Shown: piece by piece, positions 14,811-53,200 of the stretch | Layout: each line of letters starts with the position of its first letter | How positions within the stretch are numbered: the first letter of the stretch is position 1 | Source: Thalia democratica | Lineage: Eukaryota | Assembly: GCA_965202585.1 (NCBI GenBank) | Contig: OZ241830.1 | Coordinates: 37,882,001 to 37,946,000, forward strand | Length of the DNA stretch: 64,000 bases | Reading direction: 5' to 3' | Made by a program: the position numbers and the translations under genes | Notes under the pieces: generated by a model | What the model saw: the letters and a program-made list of their open reading frames with translations, nothing else | Databases searched by the model: none | What the model was told of the DNA's origin: nothing

Positions 14811-17800
14811 ATGAGCACCAGATATTCCATTTTACTGCTGTTGCTGCTTTACGGCGGGTCGGTTTCCGCCTCTTTCGTGCCCAAGGGACAGAATGATGTC
14901 ATGGAGTTGCGAGACATGCAGTATTGTCCCACCAACCAAATCAAGGAAGACCTGATCCTCAACGTTCCGAGTAAAGACACGTGTCGGGCGTTGTTGCACG
15001 CCAACGATCCCAAGACCTTCAAAGCGGACGTGAGTTTTGCACCGTGGGCTAGTAAATGTATTTGGCAAAATTAGTGTTTTTGCAAGCTTGTTTGTTTTTA
15101 TATTTTGATCATGCACAGTGGAACTGTAATTGAATAAAATAATTTTGCTTTATTAAATGACAAAATTTGTTTTAAGCAGTGTGTATACCTGTTAAAAATC
15201 TTTCATTTTCAACGGGTGCACTACTATTTAAATTTCGATAATTTATATTTTTATATTTTTTTTAAATACCACAACTCAAAAAGTAATATGTATTTGATAA
15301 ATAAAAATAAGGTTGCCAAAAAGCCTAGAAAAACCTGAAATTTTACTAATTAGGCTAAAAGAAACCTGAAATTTGAGAAAGAGAAAAAAAACTGTAACTT
15401 TGAACAGTTTCACTAAAAGGCCTGAAAGTTAAAACAACGTTTACATGTTAAGTAGTAAAATTTTAATTTGCTTAAAAAATTAATTGTATTAATAAAAATT
15501 TTTGTCATCATCAAATTTTAAAATTAAAACACATTTAAAGGAGCATTAAGGTATATTTTAATGTTCTTATACTATTAAGCATAGATTTTACCTTCAACTT
15601 AATTTAAGTTTAAAAATAAACCCTAAAACGTGTAATTTTAAAAACCTCGAACAAGTTTTTAAAACCTGGAGAAAATTTTCCGAAAAACATTTCGGTTACC
15701 CTGTAAAAAATGCGTATGTAGGTTACATTTATAACTACAAACACTTTTTTTTTCTATTAGGTTTTTATATATTTTAAGAGATATGGCTAGGTAAGTTTTA
15801 TATTATATTAATTTTAATAAACTAAAAAAAAATCAATAGTTTTTTTATTAATCCCAAGAAGTGTTTGTAGGTTTTAGTTATACCTAATATATATTTTTAT
15901 TAATATTAGGTATGAGTTTTACATACCTATTTCTAAAATATACATATATTACTTTTTGAGTTGTGGCGCTTTTAACAAATTTACAAGAAATCAAATTCTC
16001 GTAATTTTAACTGTCTGAAATTGAATTTTCATGTAACCGTCTTCGAAAATCTGATAAAGTTTTATGAAGCTTTTTTCATTGAAAATATATTATAAGTAAT
16101 CTTAAGTTCCAAGGACATAAAAAGATAACCTAATTACTTATCAAGTGAAAATTAAATAAACTTAATCTGTTTTTAAAACGAATAAGTATTGAATGTAGAA
16201 AGAGTAACAAGTACAGGATTTCCAAAATTCTGGAAGCTTTAAAAATCCCGTATTTTACAATTAAGGCTGAAAAAAATGAAAAACTTTAAAAAAAACGTGG
16301 AATTTAAACAAAAATCACTAAAAAACTAGGAAAAACCTAGAATTTCAAACAATTTTTACATGTTTAGTAGTAAAATTTTAATTTTATAAGAAAAATCTAC
16401 CATATAGGTTAAAAAATTTTAATATCTTTGAAACATTTTTATATGAAAAAATATTTTATTTATTTAAGATTATTTTACAGTATCTTTTTAATGTTGTTAC
16501 ACTTAAGAGGGTTGCCAATCTTGAATCCTGGAATTTGACAATCTGGAATTTTAAACATATTTTACATGTTATTTTAGTGTTTTATTTGTTACGTTTGGAC
16601 GGTTAAAAGTATAACAATTCAGGTTTATGTTTTTACAAAATGTTAGAAACAGATGTTTGAAATTAAAAATTTACTGCTGTATTTAAACTTCGTCTTGTTT
16701 GCATAAAATATTATGAATAAAAAAAAAATCAACGTTATTTCTGTTGCCAACCCAGTAATTTTATGGTAGCATTATATTTAATTTAGACAAGAATCACAGT
16801 TTAAAAATTAGTTGTGAGGTGAAATTATATTTCTAAACAGTACTATCGACTGAAAATTTGTTAAGAGAACAAACGAATAAAATTTAATGATTTGAATTAA
16901 TGACTTTAAACCTTTTAAATCGAAAAAAAAGCAACTGGTAAAGTGCTTAAAACTCCGTAAAAAAACTAAAATGAAAAAAGGCTATGACTCTAAACTAATT
17001 TTTAGTTGCAATTTACTTACTAAATATCTGAATACAACTTTACTTAAAAACTTAAGATAAATTGTGAAATTTATATATAAAGCTATATACATGATAGGAA
17101 AATATAAATTTATTCCTTAAAGCATGCTAAAGACATTTAGGACGTGCCGAAACAGCAGAACAATTTGTACATCTTTAATTTTTTTGCATTCAAAATCATT
17201 TGTACCGTCCAGGCTTAAAAACACTTTACTAAATATCAAAAGCAGCTAAGCATTAAGAACAAAAATAACTGCTTTGTCCGTCGGTTACGAAAATTTTAAA
17301 CTATTTCAACAGCTGTACGCGCCGCTGAGCGTTCACCAGACCTACAAGACCTGGTCGTGCAAGATCAAGATCTACACCCACTTCGAAACTTACTTTTTTT
17401 GGACGCTGCAATCTGATGATATTAGCAAGATTAGATATTTTCAAACGCTCGATGACACATACTTCAAGATCCAGGGCAATCCTACGGCCAGAACAGAACT
17501 TAATGAAAAACTGAAAAACGAGGACGAACAAGACCCTAATTCGAACAAGGAAAAATGGGAATATGATCCATTCTTTGAAAAGATCGAAGCGTGGGGGGAA
17601 ATTGGTATAAGAAGCTATGAGGATTTGTGCAGATACATGATTGAACACAAGCATGCGCCCGAGATGGGCGGAGCAATGAAAGAAAGTAATTTTTTAATAA
17701 TTTTTTTTTTCAAATAAGTTTTTTCAAGCACCTTAAAGTTTTAGATGTTGTTTTGTCAAATTGTTCAGTTATTTAGTTTGGAGATTTGACGGTGGTGTGC

Positions 17801-20800
17801 AAAATTATCATAGTTTACTTAAGATTTGTTTTCTTAAAACACAATGTTGAAAGTTGATTTAAGGTTAAAGTTGTTTAATTGCATGCTATTGACTACACTT
17901 TCTAAATTACTAGGCCCGATGTACAAAAATAAGTATCTATCTAAATAACATCGTAAAGTTCAAAACTACTTGCAGTCTTATCATTGAGTTTTTTTTTTGA
18001 TAAAACATAAGACTTTTACGGACTAGTTGAGTTATACTAATCTACTAACGAACAATTATTGAGAATTTGTAGAAAATAATGTTTTAAACACTATAACAAA
18101 ATGTAAACCTACAACGATAGGAACACAAACATAACTCATGTTCTGCAAATTTTATTTAAAAAATGCACTTTTAAAGAAATATCGCCCACTCAATAACTTT
18201 TTTTATTGTTAATATATCACATGAGCATGTGCATTAAGTTTTTGCCCACCTTACTATTCCACTAAAATTAAATGCCTTTCGAAACTCAACAATTTTTTTT
18301 TTCGATCAAAATTCGCAGCCGTTTGTTTCAATTCAAACCTACGTTTTAATTTGCAGTGGGCCACAACCAGTGGGCGGCGAAAAAAGACTACGAAGAAGAC
18401 CAGGTTTTCCATAGCAAGGGCTTTGACTGCGGGGACAAATATAGCTCCGCCGCCAAGGATGTCCTCGAATGGGCGTGGACAATCGGGAACTGCAGAGCGT
18501 GGCTCAGAACGTACGAGGCGCATTTGGAAGTGGACTACATCAAGTACAACCCGGTCAGCAAAGAAGTCAAAGGGCCCATAAGCGAGAAAGACTGGACACT
18601 CCAGTGTCCGTGGACGCATGACAAAGACTTAGACAAAGAAGTGATTAACTACTGCCAGTTAGTTTTGTTCGTTTTTTGGTGGTGATTACTTGATACTTCG
18701 TACATGAATATACATGTTTGTTATAAGTAATTGTTTCGAAGTCAATGCAGAGAAGGTCATCAAGGTCATTAAAGTGTTTTAAGTTGTTAATGGATTGTAT
18801 TTCGACTTTTCTGGTATGTTTTTAACGGTTACATGACAATTCAAATTCCGACAATTAAATTTCTAAAAAAAAATTAAAGGGCCACAACTTTTAAAGTATT
18901 ATATAAGTGACAAAAATAAAAAATATGTATGTTGATCTTATTAGTATCTACAAGCTATTTTTTTATTTTTGTAAAATAATAAATGTTTCTAAAGATATTA
19001 AAAAAGTAATAAAAATAACTATACTTAAAAAAACATTTTAGTCATATCAAAAAATATTTAATATTCTATAAAAAGAAAAAAAAATGCTTGTAGATATTAA
19101 CAAGACAAACATATGTATTTTTTATTTTTCTCAAATATATAATACTTTGAAAGTTGTGGCCCTTTAAATTTTTTTATTAGAATTTGAATTGTCGGAATTT
19201 GAAATATCGTGCACCCGTTTTTAACAATCAAATATTCAAGTATAGCTTCGAAGTCTAGACTAATAGGTTACTTATTTTGTAAACGGAGTAGTTATGGGCA
19301 TGTTTGCAAAATAACAATTACACCTAACTGATTTGTCAGCTGTTAAAAAACAAAGTATAGTTAATTTAAAGACTTTATAAAAAAATGTTTCTTTTATTTA
19401 GTTTTTTACTAAATTGCAGGTCAAACACGGCCATGTACGTGTTCGAAGAATGGAAAACGGTAGATGGAGATCGAAAAAAGGTTGATCTGCCAGATAAAAA
19501 GGGTTGTGCAAAATATGACTATCTTAAGGGTCATAGTGTGGATATCCAGCTTTTTTCTTCCTATGACGGAGGCTCCCCGACAATGGTTATTCCAGAGTTT
19601 GACATGTTTATCAGAGACTTCAGAACGTGTCCCAAGCGCGTCAGGTTGCAAACTTTTCTAAGCCATCTGTTTCAAACTAATCTTATTCTAAGTTAATTTT
19701 TTCTTAATAACAAACAAACTAGAGTTTCGTACCCGCCAAAGTTTTGTTATACAGAGTTTCTTAAGTAAGCAAGTTTCAAATGAAGTTTAAATTGATAGTT
19801 CAATGCTTGTTAATATTTCTAGAATTTTTTTTTTGTCTTTATTCAACTAACACTAGTTATTAAGATGTTTATTATTTGCTATCTTACTTGACTGTAAAAA
19901 TTGATTACATTAGACTGAAGATTAAGATTGAAACAAATTTAGCACAATAAATCAATATGTCAAAATTCAATAAAATTAGATAAAAATGTTTTGCAAAAAA
20001 AAGGTTTGTAGTATAAAAAAACTCTCAAACCAAACTACTTTTAACTTATGAAAAAGCTGTTCACACATGTAACGTTATGTTAAAATATAATTTTTCATTT
20101 TGTATTTTAGAGAATGCCATGAAGACTACGAGACAATGCTATGTACAGCAGGTGGATTCATGATTGGTTCACATGAATTTACTAAAGAACTTGCAGATAT
20201 AGAATTGGGAAAAGCCGTCCAAAGAAACAAAAATGAGGTTTACGCAGCTTTATTTAGAACTAAACACATGCTACCCCCTTTTTTTGTAAATGATACATAT
20301 TTAATATAATTTTTTAGACCACCACTAATTCAATCAAATGATTGAAATCAAAAAAAAAAGAATACTTGTTCGTCGGCCTTAAATTTAAAATTAAAACAGC
20401 TACTGATTTTTAAATAAAGCTGCATTTATTATTTTTCTATATAAATATTTAGACCTTAAACAAAATTTTGAACTCTAATATTATTAGTTAAACAAAGTAG
20501 TTTTGTTGAGAAAAATACTTAATTCGTATCTTTATTTTAATATCAACAATTTCCACAGAGAGACTTAAGTCCGGAAAGAGACGCTATGTTTAAGTCATTG
20601 AGCAACGACATTAGTTTGGACATACAACAGCAAGTGAACTACATTGCCTACAAAAACTGCTTGGCTCAACGTGACATGTTCCACACGCTGAAGTTGGCGG
20701 CTGAACACGTCCCAACGAACGTAAATAGCATTTTTAGTTTTCGCAACGAAAGTTGTTTCGTGACGCGCGAACTAGCAGCGCAAAGCGTGTTTAAACTGAA

Positions 20801-21939
20801 GTAAATTATTTTTTTTTCAGGTGGCGCGGGAAGTGACGGGGGACGAAGGGCTGGTCGCCAGTCACCAGCCTTCGGGAACGTTGAGCGTTTTGAACGGTTG
20901 CAAGCGAGTGACCGCCATGTTGCAGCGCAGTCTCAAAGTTTCCGACTACGACAAAGACGGGGGGTTCAAGTTGAAAACGGCGAACCGGCCAGTCATTCTC
21001 TTTGTGAAGGAGCCCGGAACGAAGCCTGTCAGAGGCCAGCTGATGGAAGGCGGATGGATAAAAGAAGGCATCACTCGCTATACGACGAATGATGAACCCC
21101 ACCGGCAGCTCTTTCAAGTTTTAGATCGGATAATCGAGTTTGACGAAAACGGCAATTTCAAGAACTCGTCCGTCCAACCTTCAAAACTCCAGCCTCTAGT
21201 AGCCAACTGGAAATTGACCTTGCACGATCTGCCGTTGGCGGCCTTAGACCAAGCTTCCCAAAAAGCTCAGCCTGACAAGGGCTTGGACGAGATCTCGTTG
21301 GGCCTTGAATTCGGAAAGTCAGCATACGACTCGAGCGTGTATCTGTACAATAAAATGACGCAATACGACGTGACAACCAGCAGACACAATGTTCTGAGAA
21401 ACGATAAACCTAATGGTGATGAAAATCCCGAAGATGAATATAGTAGTTTTGCTAAATTTTTAGATATGATCAACTGGGATTATAACAAATCGGTTGCTGA
21501 AAATTTTAAAAACTACATTTTATTTGATACTTTTTTCGTATCTTTTTCAAAAATATGCGTTACAATCTCTGCAGCATGTATCGCAGTGATTTTCTCAAGT
21601 TTTTTAATGCAAGGAACGTGGTACAACTGTCACAAGTTCATCAAGAACATTAGTGAGTCGCGAAAGGAAATTCGAGAAAAGAACGAAATGAGCAGGTTTT
21701 TGTTGGGGAAAGAAGGAAGCTCGGATGAGGAAAGCTCATACGACTCCGAAGATTCCTCAAGTGATGACTACAGTGATAGCGAAGACTACAGTGATAGCGA
21801 TGACTATAGTGATAGCGATGACTATAGTGATAGCGACACTGACTTTTCCACTGATAGTGATGAGATCACTGATAGTGATTACGATAGCGATAGTGATGAC
21901 GACAGCGACAGTTATTTTGACAGTGAAAACTCATCATGA
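14811..21939 (+). CDS. gB-like class III fusion glycoprotein, paralogue A (7 coding exons, about 841 aa)
   Basis: Exons 14811-15029, 17313-17685, 18357-18657, 19420-19644, 20111-20237, 20559-20720, 20821-21939. All introns are GT-AG, with phases 0,1,2,2,0,0 giving one open frame of 2526 nt. Signal peptide MSTRYSILLLLLLYGGSVSA; YCP..C N-terminus; TAGGFMIG; YIAYKNCL..AAEHVPTNVAREVTG..GTLSVLNGCKRV; NRPVILF..VRGQLMEGG..PHRQLF; TM ICVTISAACIAVIFSSFLM; acidic tail. Confidence 0.85.
15212..16040. mobile_element. Foldback MITE (ACGGKTRCA termini) in intron 1 of gene A, with a MITE family 1 copy nested at about 15308-15703
   Basis: acgggtgcac..ccacaactcaaaaagtaatat on the left and atattactttttgagttgtgg..tgtaaccgt on the right; the family 1 element (aggttgccaaa..ttaccctg) sits between the arms. 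Confidence 0.6.
18825..19218. mobile_element. Foldback MITE (long inverted repeat, about 190 bp arms) in intron 3 of gene A
   Basis: aattcaaattccgacaatt..gggccacaacttt..tatctacaagc on the left mirrors gcttgtagata..aaagttgtggccc..aattgtcggaatttgaa on the right; termini acggttaca / gcacccgt. Confidence 0.75.
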
Positions 21940-25087: not shown

Positions 25088-25216
25088 ATGCTGCCATCAA
25101 GGATATCTAAAGTTTTTTTTTGTCACACTAGCTGTGGCACTTTTTTGTAAAAGTGTTTTTCTCTAAAATAACTTGCGACACTTTGTTAAGACGAAGCTAA
25201 GACCTTCGAGGCAGAC
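25088..25216 (+). pseudogene. Relic first exon of an additional gB-like paralogue
   Basis: accATGctgc start region, then (t)gcgacactttgtt..acgaagctaagaccttcgaggcagac|GTGAGTTTTG. This matches the 3' end and donor of B/C exon 1, with internal deletions. Confidence 0.7.
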
Positions 25217-25589
25217 GTGAGTTTTGCTGGCTGTGAGTGGCGTAACGATATCAAGTGACAAAATGTATAAGTTTAAATCAAACTTATTTTTAAACTGATA
25301 GAATAAGTGTAAGCTAGTCTAGCTAATGATAACAGCAAATATTTTTGCAAAAATTCTATACTGGGCAGTTATATAAAAAACAGCTTTAAGAATTATTTTG
25401 TATACGATTTACTAGATATTTTTATCAAATTTTGTGAAATTAAAATTCTAGACATAGTTTTATTATGGTCTCAGTCGTACTTAATACTAGTAAAAATTGT
25501 TTGAAAATCATTCTACTTATTTAAAACTTTGTACTAGTTTAATTTTTTGCTCAAACTAATATATAAAACGACTTTAAAAGATATTTTTT

Positions 25590-26736: not shown

Positions 26737-29700
26737 ATGAAAGCGCTTTTTTTAACCATGCTGCTGCATTTCGGAGGGTTGGGTTCTTCCTCCATGTTCG
26801 AAGGGAGCAGGGAGGTGGTGAAGTTGCAAAACATGGCTTACTGCCCGACCAACAAGGTCAAGGAAAGCTTGGAGCTCAACGTACCGCCGAAAAAAACGTG
26901 CGACACTTTGTTGGCAGCCAACGAAGCTAAGACCTTCAAGGCTGACGTGAGTTTTGAATGTTTTGAAAATTTAGCAAAGTTGGTTTTAAACTAAAAATTT
27001 TTTGTAACCTTGGTTGTGTTTATTAGTTAATCACGTGTGCTAAAACTGACGCTGAGTGTGCTCTTACTAAGAGTTGTTTAAAACTGAGAAACGTAGTGTT
27101 TGTTGTATGAGGAGGGTTTATGTGATTTGTAAAATTTTTTTTTTAACAAATTACTATAGTTTCATAACTATTTTCGTATAAAAATGTAGTCGCTTAAGTA
27201 AATCTAGGTGGTTTAGTACACAAAAATAGTACTTGATTACTATCATAATTTGAAATACAAGTTTTAGGTAAATCTGTTTAGAAAAAAAAGTGCTAAATCT
27301 AGAATGCGTAATGACACTAATTTGTTTTTTTAAATCAAGTTTTTATTTTTGTAGTAGTATTTTGTAATTAAATATAAAGTTGGTAATTTATTTTTATTTT
27401 TGTATAATTAGCTCATGCATACGTTTAGTTTTTAGATCAAAAGTTTGAACTCTCAACAATTGTACTTGAGTAATAACCTAATTATAACTTAAGATTTTCG
27501 AGAGATTCAAAATTATCTCTATATATGAATTCTATGAAATTTAATAATTGTATTTACATAAGTTTTTGTATTTAAAAATAATAAATATTTGTTTCTGTTT
27601 ACTAAAACAATGGATTTAGTTTTTATGTAATCTCTAAATAGTTTGAAGTTTGATTTCAAATTTGTAGTCTTTTGAAATATTCTGAAACTATCAAAAAAAA
27701 GTCATTATAAACCATAGCCTATGTATGTTAAGTTATGATTTCTGTAAAGAAGTTATATCCAATAAAACAAAAATAATACTTTCTGAACAACTTTTAGTTT
27801 AAAAATACTACATAAATACTTTCTCTTTTACAATTAAAATTGAGTATTTCAGGTTTGGGATCTAAGTATCTGTTTTTAAAATACTGAAATTGTTCTTTTT
27901 ATAATAGCTTAAGTTTTTCTTTTAATAGAATAAAAAACTATAACTATTTTTTGTATTATAGCTAACTTAGAAATTTTTTTTAATGTTTATATAAAGTAAT
28001 TAACTACCATAATTTCCTTAGAAAATTTAAAAGTTTTTTTTATCAAGATTTATTCTGGGAACGGGACACTTTTGCACGGCGTCACTTTTGTACGAGTGGA
28101 CAATTTTGCACAGCAACTCTTTTGCACGAGCGTCACTTTAGCACGAGGGGACACTTTTGCACAGCGTCACTATTGCACGAGAGTAAAAAAAAATATATAA
28201 AACAAAATATAAAACGAATTTAATAAAAACAAACTGTTAAAAAAAAAGTTACTAATTGAGGGTAAGGGTTAGCGGTAACAGTGTTAGTAAGTATAAAAAA
28301 GAAATAAATTTAAAATAAACGAATAAAAAATAAAAATATAAACTAATAAAAAGAAAAAAAAAAGTTAAAAAAAGTTACCGACCAAAGGTAAGGGTTAGGG
28401 GTAACAGTGATAGAAAAAAAAACAGGAAAATAATATTAAGTCATAAAAATAAATTATAAAAATTAAAAAAGATATATGATAAAATTACCGATCGAGGGGT
28501 AAGGGTTAAGGGTAATAGTGATAACAATAATTAAAGTAAAATTTATTTTTCAACCTGTGCAAAAGTGTCCCCTCGTGCTAAAATGACGCTCTGTGCAATA
28601 GTGACGCCGTGCAAAAGTGTCCCCTAGTGCTAAAGTGACTCTCATGCAAAAGAGTCGCCATGCAATAGTGACACCCACCCTTTATTCTAAAGAGCTAAAG
28701 GCTGTAAGAAAGCTCACATTGTTTTGAAAATATAAACACTTTGAACAATTTATTTTTTAAATATCATCTTAAAAATTCCTACTTTAAACTATTTAAAGCA
28801 GTAAATAGCAACTGGTAGTTTGTTTAAAAACTGGTAGTTTGTTTGTTTTGTAATTGCGAATTAATCACTACATTACATACACCAACTTGAAGTTAAGCAT
28901 AATTATTTAAAGAAGTTATACACTTGCAACAAACTAACACATTACTCTTTAAAACTAAAAACTTGCTGAAGACATAAAAAGGACGTGCAAAAACACAGAA
29001 AAAATTTGCGCGCTTTTCAACGCTTGTCGTGCTTACAATCGTACGTACGTCTACAAAAAAAGACATACTGAACAAAAAACAGCTTAGCGTAATTTTATTG
29101 ATCTGTACAAAAAATGTTTTTCGACGTCATCTACCGTTTTTCCGCACAGCTGTTCGTGCCCAAGAGCGTCCACCAGACCTACGAGGTCTACTCGTGCAAG
29201 ATACCGTACTTCTACGAGTTCCAAACCTACTACTTGTGGTCCATGCAAAACAAGGACCCGGTCCACGACGCGGCGCTCAACGCCATCCTCCACGACCACT
29301 ACTTCAAGGTGCAGGGCAACGACGGGTACTTCCGGGAGCTGGCGAGGAACCTGACCGAGGACGCGAGAAACAAGGACCACAACAAGGAGTTGTTCGAGGA
29401 CGACCCGTACTTGTTGAGGTTCAAGAACAGGTGGCACGAGCTGGGAATGAGGAGGTTCGAGGACGTGTGCAGGCACTGGGTCGAGCACAAGGATGCGCCG
29501 GCTTTTGGCGGGAAAATGAAAGAAAGTTTGTTTTATGTTTTGTAGTTAGATCTTTAAAACAAACCGCCTGAAAGAAACGTACTAAACAATTTTTTTCAAA
29601 GCTTTCGCTGTTTAAGAAAAACTATCAATAAAAACTGCTTTTAACAAAAAATAAAACATGCACATGCAATGAAAGTTTTCATTTTGGCCCCTCCGTATTA

Positions 29701-29953
29701 ACTCACTGCAATTTAACGCGTTTCACGAGTTGATATTTACTTTGTCTTTCAACCACACGGCCGTTTGTTTCGATTCGCAACACTTTGCATTTTCAAAAGC
29801 GCTTGTTGATTCGCAGTAGGCCACAACCAGTGGAGCGTGACGCACAGTGCGGAGCGGGTGCATCACGAGGATTACGACTGCGACTACTTGGGTGTCAAAA
29901 AAATAAACTGCGTGCTGTGGCAGAGGTATTTTCAGCTATTCTCTCAAAATTAG
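26737..29953 (+). pseudogene. gB-like paralogue B: 3'-truncated copy of C (exons 26737-26946, 29150-29525, 29817-29953); could encode a secreted 240-aa fragment
   Basis: Exons 1-2 and the start of exon 3 are nearly identical to C. Homology stops at 29926 (..TGG CAG AGG), and the frame then reads YFQLFSQN to a TAG at 29951-29953. Exons 4-7 are absent downstream. Confidence 0.75.
28057..28680. mobile_element. Non-autonomous DNA transposon (Merlin-like) with 8-bp TSD, in intron 1 of B
   Basis: TSD TTTATTCT at 28049-28056 and 28681-28688; GG-starting imperfect TIRs; inverted subterminal arrays of about 18-nt cacttttgcac units; three internal gggtaagggttag blocks. The superfamily is inferred from TSD length and GG termini only. 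Confidence 0.7.
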
Positions 29954-30147
29954 AATTAACCGTTAGTCAAACTAAAAATTGATTAGTTTTTTATGTTGGA
30001 CTTAGCATAATTTGTTTAAATAGTTTTTTCTTTTATGATTAAAAACAATAAAAACGCATCATTAAAAGAATATTTCAGTTCTGGTTGAAACTTTGTGAAG
30101 TTATGATTTATTATAAGTTGCTAGTACAGTGTTTTAGGTTTAAAAAA

Positions 30148-30215
30148 GGCCGTAAGTGAGTCGAACCCAGGTCTTCAAATTAGAATGAACATGGTTCAAC
30201 CGCGATACTATTGTT
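30148..30215 (-). other. tRNA-like relic / SINE head
   Basis: Minus strand shows an A-box-like TAGTATCGCGGTT and B-box GGTTCGACTC; no convincing cloverleaf. A weaker second B-box (GGTTCAACTCC) lies at about 30910. Confidence 0.3.
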
Positions 30216-35900: not shown

Positions 35901-36660
35901 ATAAGAAAACAGCCAATACAGTAGGTATGTTTGCTACCTCTTGTTTAATTACGAACTTTTGATGATGACGCAATGTGAGTAGATACGCGAGAGATGACTG
36001 TACTTTGTTGTTTTATAAAGCTTACTATTTCGTGTAAAATTAGTTAAAAATAGTAATAGTTATTACCACCAAGTTTATTGATGACTTAATTTCAAATAAG
36101 AATAACCTTTTATACGTTTTTGATAAACTAAATGATATTACTTGTGCTTGATTATCTAAATCCCATTTTAACGAAAAAAGTTTTGTGTTTAAAGTTTCCA
36201 TCAATTTTTTAGAGTAAACTGTGATTAATTTTAAAAAGTAACTAGTTAATAAGTTAATGTATATAAAGATTAATTGAAATCTATTTGCAAATGTTGTAAG
36301 TAATAATAAGGAAAAATTTATATTTTGTCGAAAAAAGCATAATTTTATTTAAGTTTTTATAAATTTAATCTTATCATTTTGGTACACCATAATGTTTTAA
36401 TTTGAGTATTTAACAAATTACCTGTTGAAACATATACCAATCTTGTTTTCTTAAATACTCATAATAATCGTTCTAATTAAATAAATTAGTAAATTAATAA
36501 ATTAGTAATAAATTGGTTTTACAGGACTTTCATCACCACCGAAGAAGCTTGACAACTGTGTTCGCGTTCTACTGACCTCTAACGATTAGTAGAAAACTTC
36601 AGACAACTTGCAGAGACCGCTGCCCCGCATGCTGATAGAGTACGGGGAAGAACATATTAA
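32953..36660 (+). pseudogene. Decayed multi-exon gene of unknown product inside the 12 kb insert
   Basis: Phase-compatible AG..GT segments 32953-33068, 33269-33300, 33451-33520 and 35054-35125 read NDFLDKGK*CKDLTTLRIQDPWILPSD*AQSMEIHLEM / PLP*KQGHTGG / WVIKDVDLILNSFLILYNQYNDE / TCHIDRSAFKSFCWKFLKRPIKNK. A probable last exon lies at 36525-36660. The stops fit C>T changes. Confidence 0.4.
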
Positions 36661-39600
36661 GATAAATAAATAATTCAGTTTGAATAAAATTGCAGTTTTT
36701 ATGATGTTGTCATTTTTTTATTTAATGGTCTTAATTTACATTATTAATAAGATGTTTGGTTTTGTTCTCCAGTAAAAAAATTACAATAATGGTTTCAAAT
36801 GCATTAAAATTAATGGGAATTAGAACGCAATTAAGTTAAGTTATTCAAGATATTAGAACGTATGACCGATTTTTCTTAGAAGTTTGTTTCGATGATAATA
36901 AAATTAATATTATTAACTAAAGATAATTCAATTAAACTATAGAATTAAAGGAACTCTGTTTTACTATATAATTATCAAATCTTTGGTTAGAAGATTTCAT
37001 ACAAAAGTTACACTTTGATTAACTTACTTTTTCAAACGTTTCGCATCCATGTCAGACTTAATATTCATATTTAGTATTTCATGGGCAGCCATTGTTGGAA
37101 AGTTTCGAGCTTAACCAATTCGGGTCAACATTCTTCCACAGTAATATTAATGTTTTGCAATATAGCTTTAATGTCGTTTAACCGTATTTTATAATTTAAA
37201 TCGTTTGAACTATGCATTAAAAGTTATAGTAATGAATTACATAAACTATAAAATGTTTAAACCATATTTAGTTAACATATAAGCCATGTTGTTGGTAAAT
37301 TAATAGATACTTTGTAGTGAATTTTTTAATTGAAATTAAACTGGAAAAAGTGAAAAAAAAAACAACATTGCGTTCAGGCGCACATTGAACAAAGTACTAA
37401 AAAACTGCAGCTGGAAATATATTTATGAAATGTTTGAAGTCGAATAAATATATCTTGTAAATCAAGGTTTGTTGTATAGACTAACATTTTCTTTGGATGA
37501 TGTTTAAGTTGCAGCCTTATACCACTTCTGTTTAGATGACAAATATCTCGGCATTATTATTTTATAACGTGTCAGTGACACTTGTGCTGATTTGCTTTTA
37601 CATAATATTTTATAGGTCAGAAAGAAGCTTGAGCGTTTTTAAGTAAGTTATTCAAAACTGTATACATTTGAAATCAAGTACATTGAAAAAGTTAATTTAT
37701 TGACACTTTCGCAAGTTTAGTTTAAATCTATTGTTGTACTTCGGGAGCGATAAATATCTTAAATTTAATTAATATCAAATTTTTAAGAAACGCAAATGTG
37801 CTAAAAGATTGTACAGCAAATAACGCTTTTCGGGTTGCAAAAAAAAAAGAAGAAAACTCTAAAGTTTTTCTAAACATATATTTTATACAAACAGTTATGA
37901 CTATTTTATTTCCAAGAGTTACGTTCTTTGCAATGCTTTTAAAACAAAATTTACTTGCATTTACACGCAGTAAGAGATGGTGGCAGTAAAGTATGTATAT
38001 TCGGACTTGAAGCTAAAATGTGACTGTTCCGTCTGAAATTCTTAGATACTTGTTTGTTATTGTTCATTTGTTTTAAATTGTCTGATACCAATTGAAGCCT
38101 TAGTCTAGCTTGATGAAGTATTTATTAATTTTTCTCCACCTTCTATACTTTGTGTAAATATAACTCAATAGCAGTTATTAAGAAATGAGAAAATGGTTTT
38201 TTAGGTATGAAAAGATACTGTTTTTTATACCCACATAAATCTTCATCTACTTACCTGTAAGCAGCCTCTTTATTGCGATTTTACTCTTATTGTTATTTTA
38301 TCTATTACATTTTAAACAATTAGTTACGTCTCAAATCTAGACTACACTTAAAATTTAAAACAAAGTATGTGCATTTAGACATTTATAATGTACATGTCTT
38401 ATAATGATAACAAAACGAAACTATTGATGAAACAAAATAAATAGCGTTCGAAATAAGTTAATCTAATTCAACGATTTCTTAAACAACCAATGTTCATTTA
38501 AGTAGAAGATGTTATTACTATCATTTTAATAATAGTAAAACTAAGTAATGTATACTTATAATTAACTAAAAAGTTTATCATATTTTAACTAACTATAAAA
38601 GTATATTATACCACAAGATATTAGCTGATGTCAAAAATTATTTTGAGTTTTATGTTAGCACAGTTTTACATTAGCAAGTTTAGCAGTTGCAGTATAAGTT
38701 TTTTCTTTAATTTAAAACACAAAACCATGTTAAATTCTTGGTGACTACTAATGCATTTAGGATTTAGTTCATATTGCTTTCAAAAAGGTTTTGTGATGAA
38801 AGTTTATTTTAGTGCTTCAAATTTTATGTTAAGAATTAAAAACATCTAACTCACTACTAAACTTGTAATTACATAAAATGAGAAAAAATTATATATATAT
38901 GAAGTTCTTAATTCCTATTAATCTCTTAGTATAACTTCTTTAACGATAAGTTATGCTTCTTAAAACTAATTGATAATGTTTAAAAGGTTATTGTTTATCC
39001 AATTACTAACAATTAACTTGATTTTTTAGACATATAGATTTACCATAACTTAGTTTTAAAAGGTAAGCAGTACTAATTTTCTAAGGAACGAAATACTTTT
39101 GTTAAACGCTTTTTTAAAAGCAAATAATCATATAAGTTATACCATATGCATTTACAACATAATTAAACTGCGTAAAACGATGGGTTACAATTCTTAGCAT
39201 TCTTTAAACTGTTTAGCAAATAAATCACCTTACTAAAACACAAGACAAATTGTATACGTTTTTTTTTATAAGTTACATTGTATTTTGTTAAACATTAAAC
39301 TTGAATACTTGGTTTTTAGATTCTTTCACTTTCTTTTATGCCTTCAAATAAGATAATCTATTACAATAAAACTTAACATAATGTTGTAGAAACTGTGCAA
39401 AAATTTATAAAACCGTAAAACATAAATAAGCTATTGAATTTTTTTAGAAACATTTAAACCAGTTTAGCTTTATAAAACATTATACAGGAAGAATATAAAT
39501 TAAAACATTTACTGTTTAAAATAATTTAAGTATAGTCAATAAAGAACAAATTAACACAAACATTTTTTAAATAATAACAGTATGATAAAATCAAGGGTTC

Positions 39601-39900
39601 GAGTTTGTAAAATGATTGTTATACATCTTCTATAATATTGCCCTTGTTACTATTTTTTATTATTTATTGTGTTCTTATACTGTTAAAATATCATTTTGTT
39701 TAACATATATTATTAAGTATAAAGAGTGAAAATACTACTTTTATGGAGCTATTGACAGTTTTTATTAGAATATTTAACATTCGAAATCCGGTTTAACCTA
39801 TCAAAATTCTGTTAGAGGGAACAAAAAAAATGCTCATTGCTTAAAACTTAAAATACGTATTTTTTGATAGGGAATAAAAATATAAAATACTTCAAAAATG

Positions 39901-40165
39901 CAATTCTATCAATCGTAAAAAAAATTGGGTAAAAAAAAAACTTTCGTCCATCGACGAAAGCCTTTAAAAAAATATGTGATTGTATCAACCGTAAAAAAAA
40001 TTCGATTAAAAAAAGACTTTCGTCCATCGCCGAAAGCCTTTAAAAAAAATTATGTGATTGTATCAACCGTAAAAAAAATTCGATTAAAAAAAGACTTTCG
40101 TCCATCGCCGAAAGCCTTTAAAAAAAATTATGTGATTGTATCGACCGTAAAAAAAATTTGGTAAA
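39901..40165. repeat. 78-bp tandem repeat, about 3.3 copies, each with a small CTTTCG..CGAAAG hairpin
   Basis: gattgtatc recurs at 39978, 40056 and 40134 (period 78). Confidence 0.9.
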
Positions 40166-40278
40166 AAAAAGGGTTGAAAGGAGAAAAAAATTAACGAAAA
40201 AAAGGCCCCGAAAAGCTGCCGCGGCAGCTTTTCGGGGCCTTTTTTTTGTTAATTTTTTTCTCCTTTCAACCCTTTTTT
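40163..40278. repeat. Near-perfect palindrome of about 115 bp centred on CCGCGG (40221/40222)
   Basis: aaaaaaagggttgaaaggagaaaaaaattaac..ggccccgaaaagctgccg|cggcagcttttcggggcc..gttaattttttctcctttcaaccctttttt. Confidence 0.9.
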
Positions 40279-40379
40279 CTATCAGTCATTCTTTCAACTT
40301 ATAAAAATTTTAAAATCCACAAAATTTCGAAAAAACAGACCTCCCGCTGTTTTACAAATATTTTTTCAAACTTTCTGCT

Positions 40380-41016
40380 ACCATCGCAAAATTATTCGCT
40401 TTGTTCGGCTCTGAACTTCAAAGCGACTGCTATATTCAGTCGCCTTTTTATATATTGAGTGCTTTGCTGTACCTTGCGTATTTTCTAGCGTAACCGCTAC
40501 TCTGCTTCACTCTCTTCGATTGAAGCTCTCTACTAGAAACGCATCGCTTTAATCAATTCATTTATACACTCAAACGTACTTTTTGGGCAGAATCAAATCA
40601 GAGCTCGTACGGTCACTGTATCGAAGTAGCGCTTTTTTCTTTCAGACGGTATGCGCCATCGTTTCAACCAAAATTTTCTCCCGCTACTCTTTCAATAAGG
40701 TCTGCTATAACACCTTTAAAACTCCTGCTGCATCGCCCGTCTGCTTCATACTGTCGCCTCTACGTGCGCCTGCTTGCAGTTTGGCACCTTTTAAGCTTGC
40801 AACTGCTACCACCATCTTCACTGACTATACACTGTAAATTTGGGACTGCCTTACGCTTTGGCTTTCTTTCGACGGTACGTGCCATGCTTTCTGCTCTCGC
40901 TTTACCTTCCCTCGCTACTTGTTCAGTCAGGTCTGCTATACTACCTTTAACTGCCAGCTTCGCTCTTTCGACGTCGGATTGAGTCGACGGCCGCGACGAC
41001 TATAGCTATATGCCTG
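40380..41016 (-). pseudogene. Degenerate coding relic with an internal ~231-bp duplication (probable TE remnant)
   Basis: Minus frame ..VERAKLAVKGSIADLTEQVAREGKARAESMARTVERK.. is repeated as SFKGVIADLIERVAGE..; several stops and frameshifts; ggtctgctata at 40699 and 40930. Confidence 0.3.
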
Positions 41017-41838
41017 CAAAAACACTAACAGTTAACCCGCCTTGACGACGTCTACCCGCTAGACGTCTAAGGGATTTTATCATTAAAGCTTTACATTGAA
41101 AAATCCCTAAGCTGACTAGGTCGTCAGCTTGCTTTATTGCACGTTCAAGTGCCTTTCTTAATAGTGTAACATTAAGCATACGCGTATGATGCTCAAATGT
41201 AGCTGTTACTAATTCTTTCTTAGGCTACCTCAAGAGAGTCAAATTTTATATTTTTCTTCTACTTATTTTTCCACATATACTTATCGACACCTATAATATA
41301 CTTCTATAAAACTATAATAACAAATGGGGTTAAACAATACTTATTACAAAATTAGACATAAACTATTTGTAAATTTAACAGTAAAAAAACAAGAAAAGTT
41401 AAAGTTTATAGAACTGCAGTAAACATAGCGTTGTTTTTTAGGTTTGAAGTACATTTTTAAGTTTGTTGATATAACACATTTAGAATTTTAAAATTTACTT
41501 ACATAAGCAGCTCAAACGTACTTTTAATGGCGATTTTGATTTCTTTGTTTAAAACATATAGTAAAATATTATTTATTTAATATTTTGAATATCAGAAGTT
41601 TGCTTATGCACATATTAAGTTTTAAAACTATTTGATAAAGCTTTAGTTAGCTATTACAACAAAGTAGGTTTAAATTTCATAACTTTTGTACTATAATGCT
41701 TTAAATAACAGTCATTTTTAATATATTAGTTTTGATTCATATAAACAGTTAGCTCAAAAGTACTTTTGGAAAATTTTAATTCAATAAGAGTAAGGTTGTC
41801 ATTTTTACATACTTGTATATTTGTCTGATTGATATAAA

Positions 41839-42834
41839 AAATTGATATAAGAAGCTATGAGGATTTGTGCAGATACATGATTGAACACAAGTATGCGCCC
41901 GAGATGGGCGGAAAGATGAAAGAAAGTAATTTTTTATATATATTTTTTTTTCAATTAAGTTTTTTCAAGCACCTTAAAGTTGATGACGAATGATGATCCC
42001 CACCGGCAGCTCTTTCAAGTTTTAGATCGGATAATCGAGTTTGACGAAAACGGCAATTTCAAGAACTCGTCCGTCCAACCTTCAAAACTCCAGCCTCTAG
42101 TAGCCAACTGGAAATTGACCTTGCACGATCTGCCGTTGGCGGCCTTAGACCAAGCTTCCCAAAAAGCTCAGCCTGACAAGGGCTTGGACGAGATCTCGTT
42201 GGGCCTTGAATTCGGAAAGTCAGCATACGACTCGAGCGTGTATCTGTACAATAAAATGACGCAATACGACGTGACAACCAGCAGACACAATGTTCTGAGA
42301 AACGATAAACCTAATGGTGATGAAAATCCCGAAGATGAATATAGTAGTTTAGCTAAATTTTTAGATATGATCAACTGGGATTATAACAAATCGGTTGCTG
42401 AAAATTTTAAAAACTACATTTTATTTGATACTTTTTTCGTATCTTTTTCAAAAATATGCGTTACAATCTCTGCAGCATGTATCGCAGTGATTATCTCAAG
42501 TTTTTTAATGCAAGGAACGTGGTACAACTGTCACAAGTTCATCAAGAACATTAGTGAGTCGCGAAAGGAAATTCGAGAAAAGAACGAAATGAGCAGGTTT
42601 TTGTTGGGGAAAGAAGGAAGCTCGGATGAGGAAAGCTCATACGACTCCGAAGATTCCTCAAGTGATGACTACAGTGATAGCGAAGACTACAGTGATAGCG
42701 ATGACTATAGTGATAGCGACACTGACTTTTCCACTGATAGTGATGAGATCACTGATAGTGATTACGATAGCGATAGTGATGACGACAGCGACAGTTATTT
42801 TGACAGTGAAAACTCATCATCATCTGAAGACTAG
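41839..42834 (+). pseudogene. gB-like A': copy of A with its 5' part missing and a ~3.3 kb internal deletion
   Basis: 41839-41981 matches A 17599-17740 (end of exon 2 plus start of intron 2) and is fused directly to sequence matching A 21084 onward (mid exon 7). No signal peptide or exons 3-6. Confidence 0.85.
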
Positions 42835-45800: not shown

Positions 45801-45942
45801 GATTAGCTAGGCATATAAGATTAAATTTTCATAATTTCCATTTAGCGAACTTATCCAAAAACATTTATGATTATCTTAATTTTAGATTAGATTGGATTAA
45901 ATTATAAAATTAAAAACTCACAATACTTCGCAAATAAATACC

Positions 45943-46070
45943 ATGCTGCCATCAAGGAGATCTAAGGTTTTTTTTGTCACACTAGCTGTGGCACTTTTTT
46001 GTGAAAGTGTTTTTCTCTAAAATAACGTGCGACACTTTGTTAAGACAAAGCTAAGACCTTCAAGGCAGAC
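45943..46070 (+). pseudogene. Relic first exon of gB-like paralogue (duplicate of 25088-25216)
   Basis: aacgtgcgacactttgtt..gctaagaccttcaaggcagac|GTGAGTTTTG. Confidence 0.7.
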
Positions 46071-47541: not shown

Positions 47542-50500
47542 ATGAAAGCGCTTTTTTTAACCATGCTGCTGCATTTCGGAGGGCTGGGTTCTTCCTCCAT
47601 GTTCGAAGGGAGCAGGGAGGTGGTGAAGTTGCAAAACATGGCTTACTGCCCGACCAACAAGGTCAAGGAAAGCTTGGAGCTCAACGTACCGCCGAAAAAA
47701 ACGTGCGACACTTTGTTGGCAGCCAACGAAGCTAAGACCTTCAAGGCCGACGTGAGTTTTGAATGTTTTGAAAATTTGGCAAAGTTGGTCTTAAACTAAA
47801 AATTTTTTGTAACCTTGGTTGTGTTTATTAGTTAATCACGTGTGCTAAAACTGACCTTGAGTGTGCTCTTACTAAGAGTTGTTTGAAACTGAGAAACGTA
47901 GTGTTTGTTGTATGAGGGGGTTTATGTGATTTGTAAAATTTTTTTTTAACAAACTACTATAGTTTCATAAGTATTTTCGTATAAAAATGTAGTCGCTTAA
48001 GTAAATCTAGGTGGTTTAGTACACAAAAATAGTACTTGATTACTATCATAATTTGAAATACAAGTTTTAGGTAAATCGGTTTAGAAAAAAAAGTGCTAAA
48101 TCTAGAATGCGTAATGACACTAATTTGTTTTTTTAAATCAAGTTTTTATTTTTGTAGTAGTATTTTGTAATTAAATATAAAGTTGGTAATTTATTTTTAT
48201 TTTTATATAATTAGCTCATGCATACGTTTAGTTTTTAGATCAAAAGTTTGAACTCTCAACAATTGTACTTGAGTAATAACCTAATTATAACTTTAATTTA
48301 TAAGTTTTTTTTTTCAAGATTTATTCTGGGAACGGGACACTTTTGCACAGCGTCACTTTTGTACGAGTGGACAATTTTGCACAGCAACTCTTTTGAACGA
48401 GCGTCACTTTAGCACGAGGGGATACTTTTGCACGGCGTCACTATTGCACGAGAGTAAAACAAATATATAAAACAAAATAAAACACGAATTTAATAAAAAC
48501 AAACTGTTTAAAAAAAAGTTACTAATTGAGGGTAAGGGTTAGCGGTAACAGTGTTAGTAAATATAAAAAAGAAATAAATTTAAAATAAAAGAATAAAAAA
48601 TAAAAATATAAACTAATAAAAAGAAAAAAAAAAGTTAAAAAAAAATACCGACCAAAGGTAAGGGTTAGGGGTAACAGTGATAGAAAAAAAAACATACAAC
48701 TAATCAAAAAAAAACAGGAAAATAATATTAAGTCATAAAAATAAATTATAAAAATTAAAAAAAAATATATGATAAAATTACCGATCGAGGGGTAAGGGTT
48801 AAAGGTAATAGTGATAACAATAAATAAAGTAAAACGTTTTTTTTCAACCTGTGCAAAAGTGTCCCCTCGTGCTAAAATGACGCTCTGTGCAACAGTGACG
48901 CCGTGCAAAAGTGTCCCCTAGTGCTAAAGTGACTCTCATGCAAAAGAGTCGCCATGCAATAGTGACACCCACCCTTTATTCTAAAGAGCTAAAGGCTGTA
49001 AGAAAACTCACATTTTTTTGAAAATAAAAACACTTTGAACAATTTATTTTTTAAATATCATCTTAAAAATTCCTACTTTAAACTATTTAAAGCAGTAAAT
49101 AGCAACTGGTAGTTTGTTTGAAAACATGTAAAATACTGTTTGTAAAAATAGAATTTATTACATTAAGCTTATTTTATAATTGCGAATTAATCACTACATT
49201 ACATACACCAACTTGAAGTTATGCATAATTATTGAAAGAAGTTATACACTTGCAACAAACTACCAGTTTAAATACTCTTTAAAACTAAAAACTTGCTGAA
49301 GACTTAAAAAGGACGTGCAAAAACACAGAAAAAATTTGCGCGCTTTTTAACGCTTGTCGTGCTTACAATCGTACGTACGTCTACAAAAAAAAGACATACT
49401 GAACAAAAAACAGCTTAGCGTAATTTTATTGATCTGTATAAAAAAATTTTTATGACGTCATCTACCGTTTTTCCGCACAGCTGTTCGTGCCCATGAGCGT
49501 CCACCAGACCTACGAGGTCTACTCGTGCAAGATACCGTACTTCTACGAGTTCCAAACCTACTACTTGTGGTCCATGCAAAACAAGGACCCGGTCCACGAC
49601 GCGGCGCTCAACGCCATCCTCCACGACCACTACTTCAAGGTGCAGGGCAACGACGGGTACTTCCAGGAGCTGGCGAGGAACCTGACCGAGGACGCGAGAA
49701 ACAAGGACCACAACAAGGAGTTGTTCGAGGAAGACCCGTACTTGTTGAGGTTCAAGAACAAGTGGCACGAGCTGGGAATGAGGAGGTTCGAGGACGTGTG
49801 CAGGCACTGGGTCGAGCACAAGGCGGCGCCGGCTTTTGGCGGGAAAATGAAAGAAAGTTTGTTTTATGTTTTGTAGTTAGATCTTTAAAACAAACCGCCT
49901 GAAAGAAACGTACCAAACAATTTTTTTCAAAGCTTTCGCTGTTTAAGAAAAACTATCAATAAAAACTGCCTTTAACAAAAAATAAAACATGCACATGCAA
50001 CGAAAGTTTTCATTTTGGCCCCTCCGTATTAACTCACTGCAATTTAACGCGTTTCACGAGTTGATATTTACTTTGTCTTTCAACCACACGGCCGTTTGTT
50101 TCGATTCGCAACACTTTGCATTTTCAAAAGCGCTTGTTGATTCGCAGTAGGCCACAACCAGTGGAGCGTGACGCACAGTGCGGAGCGGGTGCATCACGAG
50201 GATTACGACTGCGACTACTTGGGTCTCAAAAAAATAAACTGCGTGCTGTGGCAGAGGACGTACGTGGCGCGGCTGGAGGTGGTCCACATCAAGTACAACC
50301 CGGTCAAAAAGGAGATCATCGTGCCTCTGGGCGAGCAAGACAAAAAGGCCCGGTGCACGTGGACGCGTGAGGAAGACGGCAAAGAGGTCGTGAAGTACTG
50401 CCAGTTAGTTTTGTTCCGAGTTATAAAAAAACTGATTAATTGATGACTTGATTATTTTTGTTTGCACGTAGTTGTTTTACAGTAAATAAGTAAGAAATAT

Positions 50501-53200
50501 TCTCTTAAAGCACCTTTAGTTCTTGACGAATTTTCAGTTACCTAGTATGTTTTAAACACGTCAGTTATTTAAGCTAAAATCTTATAAACAATGAAGTTGT
50601 TCTAAAAATTTTTTTTAAACACAAATTATTCTTTAAACTAAATTCGACTGACAGCTTTCAACAATCAAAATATAGTTGATTCAAAAACATTGTCATAAAA
50701 CAAAATTGTTTGTTTAATTTTGTCTCAATTAAATTTTAGGACAGATACGAGCATGTACGTGTTTTCCGAATATGATAAAGAGGGAAATAAGGTTGATCTG
50801 CCAGATAGAAATGGTTGTGCGAAATACGACTTGAAGATGGCTGAAGATACGGAAATCCAGCTTTTTTCTTCCAACGACGGAGGGCCCCCCACCATGGTTA
50901 TTCCAGAGCATGACATGTTTATCAGGGACTTCAGAACGTGTCCCGAACGCGTCAGGTAGCAAAATTTTCTAAGCGATTTGTTTTTAACTAATTTGTCTTA
51001 ATTAGTTAATACTTTGTAGGTATAACAAATAAATAAACAAGGTTCTAAGTATACAGAACTTTTGTAACAAAATTTATTTAATGAACCAGTTTTAGTTTGA
51101 AAAAGAAATGATAGTTTCATGATTTCATCTATAAACAGCCAATAAACTAAAGCACCAACTATATTTTAGCACAACTAATAAAAAAAAAAGAAAACTTTTA
51201 ATAAAAAACATTAAAAAAAGCTAAATTTAGTTTCAAAAATTTTTAAAAGGCCGTCTTAGCATTGTATGATAGTAAAGTTTTTAATAGACTCTAAGCTTTT
51301 TGAAGTGTTTTCTGTCACATAGCGTTATGTCAATATATAATGTATTATTGATTAAATTTAGGAAATGCCATGGAGACTACGAGACAATGCTGTGTACATC
51401 GGATGGACACTTGATTGCTTCAAAAGAATTTACTAAAGAACTTGCAGATATAAAATTGGGAAGAGCCGTCAAAAGAGACGCAGATCAGGTTTTAACAGCT
51501 TTATTTGACACTAATCAGAGTTTTTTGTTACCCTTTATTCACAGATAATTCAAAGCTACTTTGGTTATGTCAGCAAACACTAATGCAATCAAATATTTTT
51601 TTTTGAACAACATTTGTTCAACACTAGGGCGACGCAAATTTAAATAAAAACCAGCTACTGTTTTAATTTTATTGCTGCAATTTAAAAGTTTTTAATATGT
51701 AGTTCATTATAAACCTTGAAAAATTTTGTTAAAACTGAAACGTTTTTAGTTTAGCAAGGTGTTTCTTACTGGCTTTATTTTAAAACACAATTATCCACAG
51801 AAAGACACATCCCCGTTCGTGAACAACATGATTTCGTCAATCGAGAACGACATAAACTTAGACTTACAACAGCAAGTAAACTACATTGCCTACAAAAACT
51901 GCTTGGATCAAATCGACACGCACTTCACGCTGAAGTTGGCGGCCGAACACGACCCAACGAACGTAATGAGCATTTTTAGTTTTCGTATTTTTTTTTTGCG
52001 GCGCACGAAACACATCGAGCAGTGCGAAATGTGCTCGAACTCGAGTAAACCTCTTTTTATTTTCAGGTGGCGCGAATAGTGACGGGGGACAAAGGGCTGG
52101 CCGCCGGTCACCAGCCTTCGGGAACGCTGAGCGTGTACGACGGTTGCGTGCGAGTGGACGCTGTTTTGCGAGGCAGCCTGAAAATCGATAACAGGGACGA
52201 CGGGCGCGTGCGCATCGCGAGCCGGCCGGTCGTCAGCTTCGTGGCGGAGCGCGGCAAGCCGCCGGTCCTCGGCCAGCTCATGGAGGGCGGGTGGTTGAAG
52301 AAGGGCATCACCCGCTTCACGACGAAGGGGGAGCCCCACCGGCAGATATTCCAGTTTCAGGAGCACGTGTTCGAGTACGACGCCAACGGCGAGTACGTGG
52401 GCGAGACGGCGAAGCCGCTGTTTCTCGAGCCCCAGATAACCAACTGGAACTGGACCAGGTACGAGCTGTCCACCCCGAGCCTGCTGCAAATGTCCCGCAA
52501 CGCTCAGCCCGAAAAGGGCCTGGACGACGTTTCGTTGACGGTTGCGTACGGGCGCGCTGCGCACGAATTAAGCAAGAAACTGCACAGGGGAGTCGACCCG
52601 TACGACGTGACGGCCAGAAGGCATGACGTTACGAAGGATTATCCGACAATCAAAGAAGACAGTACTTTAAATAAAATTTTGAAGTGGCTTAATTGGGACG
52701 TGAATTACAGTCCCCTTAAGAATCTGAAGAGAATTGTGCTGTTTTGGCCGGCGTTCGTTAAGTTTACAAAAGTATGTGTTACGGCCATGGCGGCGACTAT
52801 CGGAGTGGTTATCACGTGCCACATATTGAAAACGACGTGGTATAACTGCTATAAGCTCACCAGCAGCATCAGGGAGTCGCGGGAGGAAATTCGAGAGAAG
52901 AACGAAATGAGCAGGTTTTTGTTGGGGAAAGAAGGAAGCTCGGATGAGGAAAGCTCATACGACTCCGAAGATTCCTCAAGTGATGACTACAGTGATAGCG
53001 AAGACTACAGTGATAGCGATGACTACAGTGATAGCGATGACTATAGTGATAGCGATGACTACAGTGATAGCGATGACTATAGTAAAACTGAGTCCTCTAG
53101 CGGCAGTGATGACGCCAGCGAAAGTGATGACGTTAGCGACATAGATGACGTCAGTGGTAGTAATGGAGAAAGTGAAAGCTCATCATCAGCTGAAGATTAG
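47542..53200 (+). CDS. gB-like class III fusion glycoprotein, paralogue C (7 coding exons, about 826 aa)
   Basis: Exons 47542-47751, 49481-49856, 50148-50403, 50740-50955, 51362-51488, 51801-51962, 52067-53200. Intron positions and phases match A; open frame of 2481 nt. Signal peptide MKALFLTMLLHFGGLGSS; SRPVVSF..VLGQLMEGG..PHRQIFQF; TM VCVTAMAATIGVVITCHIL; acidic DYSDSD tail. Confidence 0.85.
48328..48974. mobile_element. Merlin-like non-autonomous transposon in intron 1 of C (same insertion as 28057-28680)
   Basis: TSD TTTATTCT at 48320-48327 and 48975-48982; same structure as the copy in B. Confidence 0.7.

Follow-up and report, generated by a model that had tools for sequence, protein, structure and literature searches.

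Introduction

Host genes with a viral-type fusogen scaffold include the syncytins (class I), whose coding regions are intronless, and EFF-1 and HAP2 (class II). In the available sections of PMC12236693, eukaryotic members are given for these two classes and class III is viral only, and the accessible part of PMC10377500 likewise treats class III as viral. Here we describe two intact, intron-containing genes, A and C, which are very probably host genes of class III envelope (env) descent, and a set of short relatives elsewhere in the same genome. A and C lie in a 64,000-nucleotide window (the whole stretch analysed) of Thalia democratica (GenBank assembly GCA_965202585.1, contig OZ241830.1, positions 37,882,001 to 37,946,000; G000:C6:37882001-37946000 in our searches, which covered an 802-Mb genome in 1833 contigs). 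They differ from the syncytins, EFF-1 and HAP2 in fold class, and fusion by their products is a prediction.

The env of Ty3/gypsy errantiviruses that is of the herpes simplex virus (HSV)/glycoprotein B (gB) type (PMC13524379) has a signal peptide, a class III-type ectodomain, an anchor and colinear cysteines; A and C share these, with an ectodomain that is putatively of class III type. In some errantivirus lineages a bridge lies near the fusion loops, a furin site is not always kept, and the main text of the paper, in the part available, contains neither 'domesticat' nor 'exapt' (PMC13524379). In contrast to these env genes, A and C are spliced, lie outside long terminal repeats (LTRs) and away from pol, are 17-19% identical to the envs of their own genome, and carry insertions, an additional pair of cysteines and an acidic tail that is long. 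Herpesvirus gB resembles A and C through a weak PF00606 match over the domain IV stretch and similar-looking central-helix motifs. A and C lack its domain IV cysteine pair, an R-x-[RK]-R site and a herpesvirus context, and the dependence of gB on gH/gL (accessible part of PMC13524379) has no visible counterpart at A and C.

According to the available sections of PMC1262188, Drosophila Iris and the mosquito roo-derived env genes are invertebrate host genes from retroelement env, with tandem duplication and one de novo intron in Iris-B; they differ in their F-type env, a lost fusion peptide, positive selection and one intron compared with six in A and C. Class III sequences kept in invertebrate genomes away from the element, and for which domestication has been proposed, come from mosquitoes (solo chuvirus-like glycoproteins; 10.1101/2020.02.15.950899) and from horseshoe crabs (chuvirus-G elements; PMC12282059). 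The available text of the mosquito study does not mention introns, and in the horseshoe crab the viral piece lies downstream of the open reading frame (ORF) in a spliced mRNA; in the accessible parts of these papers, neither case combines a full-length spliced protein with a sister family that is secreted. Suppressyn and Refrex-1 (PMC9245640, in the part available) resemble our short genes in that they comprise a signal peptide plus env's N-terminal part, have no anchor and are kept by the host, but they are receptor-binding surface-subunit (SU) pieces of class I envs, whereas the short genes encode a putative fusion-loop domain and are spliced and multi-copy. A literature search with incomplete coverage of subscription journals, and with supplements excluded, found neither a spliced or domesticated class III host gene of full length nor any class III family that is secreted.

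Results

Structure of genes A and C

An earlier note on this window had described A and C as genes that splice, via six coding introns, into type I membrane proteins of about 830-840 amino acids, and this structure held up. All twelve introns have GT-AG ends, with phases 0,1,2,2,0,0 in each gene. The spliced frames (842 codons in A and 827 in C, including the stop) contain no internal stops, and the junctions, which are predictions from DNA only, fall in the same columns of the protein alignment. At 841 amino acids A is of the size proposed, and C, at 826, is slightly shorter. Exons are 38-57% GC versus 23-38% in the introns (the window is about 25% GC outside exons), an in-frame stop lies within 27 codons of the donor in eleven of the twelve introns, and GT, like AG, is present at about 5-6% of positions. 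Together these values argue that the splice model is not a chance reading. The introns reach 2.3 kb, are AT-rich and carry host repeats. Intron 3 of A contains an inverted-repeat element (18817-19226) that resembles a miniature inverted-repeat transposable element.

The two proteins are 52% identical outside the tail. Hydropathy gives one N-terminal, signal-like peak and one C-terminal, transmembrane-like peak in each, which is the type I layout of signal peptide, large ectodomain and C-terminal anchor. Fourteen ectodomain cysteines stand at matching columns, and three N-glycosylation sequons were counted in the scanned part of each protein. A domain IV disulfide around the SRP motif is a feature of HSV-1 gB. 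As the earlier note had observed, this pair is lost: in both A and C, no cysteine follows the CxRV motif before the transmembrane segment, and the local envs mostly lack the pair too.

Alignment to env places aromatic stretches of A and C at putative fusion-loop positions; loop 2 is shorter and aliphatic in C and Trp-rich in the short genes on contig C7. Both proteins have long insertions relative to env and a Ser/Asp-rich, acidic tail of about 100 residues, built from 18-nt repeats, that is unlike env. The start of the tail (21616-21939 and 52835-53200) is nearly identical between A and C despite ectodomains that are about 50% alike, and the frame of A stops four codons before those of C and of A', a broken duplicate of A (Table 1).

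Relationship to class III fusion proteins

Class III (gB-type) kinship of A and C is supported by several comparisons. Pfam scans, which used single exons and not the spliced protein, gave 14.4 and 16.3 bits for PF00606 (cut-off 43), a weak match that starts at CxRV, takes in the SRP and GQL motifs and ends at H..F; nothing relevant came from exon 2 of eight family members or from exons 1-6 of A. Atlas returned 0.91 to PF24664 clusters, with low recognition, and no named family for exon 2 (best 0.86). A search of PDB by sequence with exon 7 did not find gB. Comparisons with hhalign were controlled by sequence shuffles. The cysteines and motifs of A and C are colinear over both halves with those of a recognised gB-type protein, and their nearest measurable relatives are the gB-type envs of Ty3/gypsy elements in the same genome, at the identity given above. 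The earlier note's description of the genes as gB-like therefore stands as sequence kinship, but with these local envs, and not herpesvirus gB, as the nearest relatives. The motifs it quoted from the window are all present; its pairings of them with HSV-1 motifs were compared over the CxRV to H..F stretch, where the match is the one below cut-off.

It is very unlikely that the class III likeness arose by chance or convergence in a lineage-specific group of cysteine-rich host membrane and secreted proteins. Each single match does fall under formal cut-offs, and AlphaFold2 gave low-confidence models of exon 7 (pLDDT 39, two-row alignment) and of a local env (pLDDT 32, nine rows), with which a BFVD search had no matches at E 0.001, a result that is uninformative given the model quality. 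However, three different methods agree on the superfamily, and the colinearity extends across both halves.

The gB-env Ty3/gypsy elements belong to two families (61% env identity), found at G000:C1:19145314-19159050 (L032, L033) and near 97.11 Mb on C4 (L034, L035), with many dispersed copies and LTR pairs that are 99.8-99.9% identical. A search of 1.84 billion representatives with exon 7 gave three matches, two of which were dropped as spurious (repetitive plant proteins, matched over a short stretch only). The third, P0001, comes from a 2-kb ENA contig that offers no genomic context; its frame is open and is 79% identical to exon 7 of A. It lies outside the three exon-7 matches of this genome and so probably comes from a related organism. 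None of 4438 candidates among longer proteins matched exon 7, env searches returned only P0004 and P0005, and no pattern match was confirmed in IMG/VR (0/61 and 0/80) or in JGI metagenomes (0/291 and 0/193). Among sequencing runs, three with a match were listed, from two studies, and none of the three was an RNA run. Genome-wide family searches did not list the window genes, as expected for split weak matches. Since no other relative was found, the searches point to a lineage-restricted family.

Host-gene status of A and C

The earlier note had reported no gag, pol, LTR or other viral gene around the two genes. We likewise found no gag-pol or LTR match and recognised no other viral gene in the window or in the 10 kb scanned on each side, and seven short-gene loci were also free of gag-pol and LTR matches. 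An errantivirus env is an intronless ORF in an LTR element with gag-pol, whereas A and C have six introns and no such match. Nor do they lie among herpesvirus genes: the neighbours are a NACHT gene, a PARP-like frame, reverse transcriptase (RT) pieces of long interspersed nuclear elements (LINEs) and an unplaced ORF. Two marks of a domesticated env gene of the syncytin type, an intact env-derived frame outside an element and purifying selection between paralogues, are present in both. By these tests A and C resemble a domesticated env and are neither herpesvirus gB nor errantivirus env. NACHT, PARP-like and Kelch genes, together with the Ty3/gypsy elements, are in keeping with an animal genome.

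The ratio of nonsynonymous to synonymous substitution rates (dN/dS; NG86, between paralogues only) is below 1. For A versus C it is 0.55 (0.44-0.68), and 0.47 in exons 1-3 and 7. In exons 4-6 it is about 1; dS there is as low as 0.25 and the intron flanks are alignable, which suggests gene conversion between A and C in these exons. The introns, the open frames, dN/dS below 1 and the lack of a gag-pol or LTR match all argue that A and C are host genes, and this part of the exaptation proposed earlier is upheld.

We consider it very unlikely that A and C are instead intron-bearing genes of an endogenous large DNA virus or giant mobile element. Such an origin would fit the high GC content at third codon positions (GC3; 0.57 in A, 0.74 in C and 0.87 in the intronless PARP-like frame) in a region of 25% GC, and the intronless 748-residue frame 2.5 kb past the window. 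Several observations weigh against it: no other viral gene was recognised over the extent of flanks read, the long, AT-rich introns carry host repeats, paralogues are found on C6, C7 and C8 with no common flanks seen, and IMG/VR holds no confirmed relatives. In addition, an insert within the window has a repeated partner on C2 that is a host gene array, which we take to be BTB/BACK-like. GC3 is 0.54 in the C8 paralogue, 0.38-0.41 in two C7 paralogues and about 0.3 in retroelement genes.

Short paralogues without an anchor

With exon 2 of C as the query, 14 of 23 candidates were strong matches outside the window. Exon 3 of a short paralogue gave 16 matches among 21 candidates, on C7 (13), C1233 (2) and C8 (1), two of them with a stop; these counts are lower bounds, and contig C1233 may duplicate C7. 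Four of the sixteen short genes were modelled. Three are open, with six exons, about 360 amino acids and a stop in the homologue of exon 5, and one has a stop in exon 2; for a fifth gene, exon 5 was not found. The modelled proteins are 31-35% identical to A and C, with a signal peptide and no second hydrophobic peak, and about sixteen short relatives are apparently secreted. Of the cysteines, the ten in the N-terminal half are all retained and the first one is missing; in gB, the partner of that first cysteine lies in the C-terminal half. Their second loop is Trp- or Phe-rich.

The genome search found exons 6 and 7 only in the window (exon 7 with three matches), and the 3.8-12 kb downstream of four short genes contained nothing below E 0.07. 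Missed downstream exons were rejected on this basis, with four of the 16 genes checked. Because the short paralogues are anchorless, most family members cannot be fusogens; the earlier note could not see this larger family. Three whole-gene pairs of short paralogues give dN/dS values of 0.25-0.26, and 15 exon-2 pairs give 0.12-0.36. Introns 1 and 4 occupy the alignment columns of their counterparts in A and C. For introns 2 and 3 the offset is three and seven columns, with the phase unchanged, and one intron is extra. The shared and shifted positions indicate that intron gain largely predates the split of long and short genes.

A reading without any fusion is that the whole family, including A and C, serves in defence, as surface or soluble decoys for a receptor or lipid, or as trimer poisons, limiting germ-line invasion by env-carrying retroelements and viruses. 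The genome does hold recently inserted gB-env elements, as their near-identical LTR pairs show, and most family members lack the refolding half. The genes form birth-and-death arrays, and A and C have NACHT and PARP-like neighbours. Such a role has been proposed for the mosquito solo chuvirus glycoproteins and shown for truncated retroviral envs (10.1101/2020.02.15.950899 and PMC9245640, each in the part available). Even so, we judge this reading unlikely. The low identity to present envs makes a common receptor or mixed trimers doubtful; A and C keep the central helix, the domain IV stretch and the membrane-proximal region, with which a decoy could dispense, judging by the short genes; and the positive selection reported for Iris (PMC1262188, in part) is not seen in the measured pairs.

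Quite improbable, in our view, is a repurposing for membrane binding or adhesion unrelated to viruses, with A and C in gamete or self/non-self recognition and the short genes as secreted membrane-active (e.g. antimicrobial) effectors acting through the Trp-rich loop. The sharp differences in loop 2 among members, the long insertions and acidic tail that set A and C apart from env, and the strong purifying selection on the short genes would all be compatible with it, but adhesion has no need of the complete fusion architecture of A and C.

Duplicates, insert and neighbouring genes

The earlier note had seen a gene family within the window. Only A and C are intact; the other two copies, B and A', are, as assembled, broken pieces of a recent duplication (94-96% identity), so that a four-gene family was rejected. 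Orphan 62-nt pieces between the genes (25165-25226 and 46019-46080), 85% like the end of exon 1, appear to be traces of older duplicates.

Table 1. Positions of genes, exons and other features within the window
Feature	Position	Strand	Basis or remark
Gene A: intact, with 7 exons; type I membrane protein of 841 aa	14811..21939	+	splice model, hydropathy
A exon 1: signal peptide and two N-terminal cysteines	14811..15029	+	hydropathy
A exon 2: putative fusion loop 1, aromatic tip 17391-17402	17313..17685	+	inferred, alignment to env
A exon 3: putative fusion loop 2 between extra cysteine pair (18428-18493)	18357..18657	+	inferred
A exon 4: inferred domain II	19420..19644	+	
A exon 5	20111..20237	+	homologous exon ends the short paralogues
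A exon 6: inferred central helix	20559..20720	+	found nowhere else in this genome but in C
A exon 7: PF00606-like stretch, membrane-proximal region, transmembrane segment (~21553-21609), Ser/Asp-rich tail composed of 18-nt repeats	20821..21939	+	
B: broken 5' duplicate of gene C, with exons 1 and 2 and exon 3 up to nt 110	26737..29926	+	
Repetitive non-coding insert, B to A'	29927..41838	.	other contigs hold many matches (67-93%) to pieces of it
A': deleted duplicate of gene A (exon 2 end fused to 3' part of exon 7)	41839..42834	+	
Gene C: intact, with 7 exons; type I membrane protein of 826 aa	47542..53200	+	splice model, hydropathy
C exon 1	47542..47751	+	
C exon 2: putative fusion loop 1 with its tip at 49559-49570	49481..49856	+	
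C exon 3: putative fusion loop 2 at 50210-50242	50148..50403	+	
C exon 4	50740..50955	+	
C exon 5	51362..51488	+	
C exon 6	51801..51962	+	
C exon 7: PF00606-like stretch (residues 27-105), transmembrane segment (~52772-52828), acidic tail	52067..53200	+	

The insert between B and A' is about 12 kb of repeats. We rejected it as a virus on the basis of its repeated partner, the host gene array on C2. A piece of it has 27 listed copies at G000:C2:92.58-94.01 Mb (L049-L051), spaced about 30 kb apart in both orientations, and the repeat unit that was read holds a 501-residue frame, presumably the BTB/BACK-like gene. Within the insert, 39903-40284 holds a 78-nt repeat in 3.5 copies and, after it, a near-perfect palindrome of 126 nt; related sequence is found on other contigs.

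Upstream of the genes lie the spliced NACHT-type gene (L047:335-5670, minus strand), which has an acidic repeat exon, and the PARP-like frame (window 1-504, minus strand, into L047:9797-10000; PF00644, E 0.0024; 236 amino acids, open), with six more matches elsewhere in the genome. Downstream are LINE RT pieces and the single-copy 748-residue frame (L048:2455-4701, minus strand), which had no Pfam matches. Its residues 73-189 weakly match five other places, and the frame is reminiscent of vertnin-like, transposon-derived genes.

Discussion

Our best overall explanation, held tentatively at a little under an even chance, is that a captured env became a host gene family in which A and C act as fusogens and the short genes as secreted binders. 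An intronless class III (gB-type) envelope gene would have been captured long ago by this animal lineage, from a Ty3/gypsy-type element somewhat more probably than from a free virus, and would then have gained spliceosomal introns, become a host gene family and split in two. From the alignment and from class III biology (PMC10377500, in the part available), exons 2-3 would carry the fusion loops, exons 4-5 a PH-like domain, and exon 6 the trimer helix, while the crown, the arm, the membrane-proximal region and the anchor would all be encoded by exon 7. A and C would retain the signal peptide, two hydrophobic loops, seven cysteine pairs, the central helix, the membrane-proximal region and the anchor. 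As trimers at the cell surface, they may drive their loops into the membrane facing them and merge the two membranes by refolding, as syncytins do. The roughly sixteen short paralogues would consist of the N-terminal fusion-loop and PH-like domains only, secreted and unable to refold. As soluble binders of a membrane or receptor, they could compete with or modulate class III envelopes, whether A and C or those of invading retroelements and viruses, in the way that suppressyn and Refrex-1 act on retroviral envelopes.

We rank fusion first for A and C because, as the short genes show, half of the architecture is enough for mere binding. That A or C is a working fusogen is a serious possibility, with the balance tilting somewhat against it. 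The fullest form of this proposal seems rather unlikely. In it, A and C would be the first class III fusogens in cells and would drive cell-cell fusion in an invertebrate (e.g. of gametes or muscle), and the short paralogues would be free fusion-loop modules that evolved into antagonists of A and C or into membrane-active effectors. The two together would be a counterpart of syncytin and suppressyn that arose independently on the gB fold, and five to six introns would have been added once the gene was captured.

A class III gene that is spliced, selected and full-length offers a direct test of whether animals have recruited the class III fold. A and C also allow a test of gB-type fusion without gH/gL-like partners, a question left open for errantiviruses in the accessible part of PMC13524379. 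If the proposed reading is true, the anchorless family would supply a fusion-loop module that is both natural and stable. The introns, with two positions shared, two shifted and one private to the short genes, are a rare traceable case of intron gain into what would once have been an intronless gene. A viral gB-like env would here have turned into ordinary intron-containing animal genes, which could be the first cellular members of class III.

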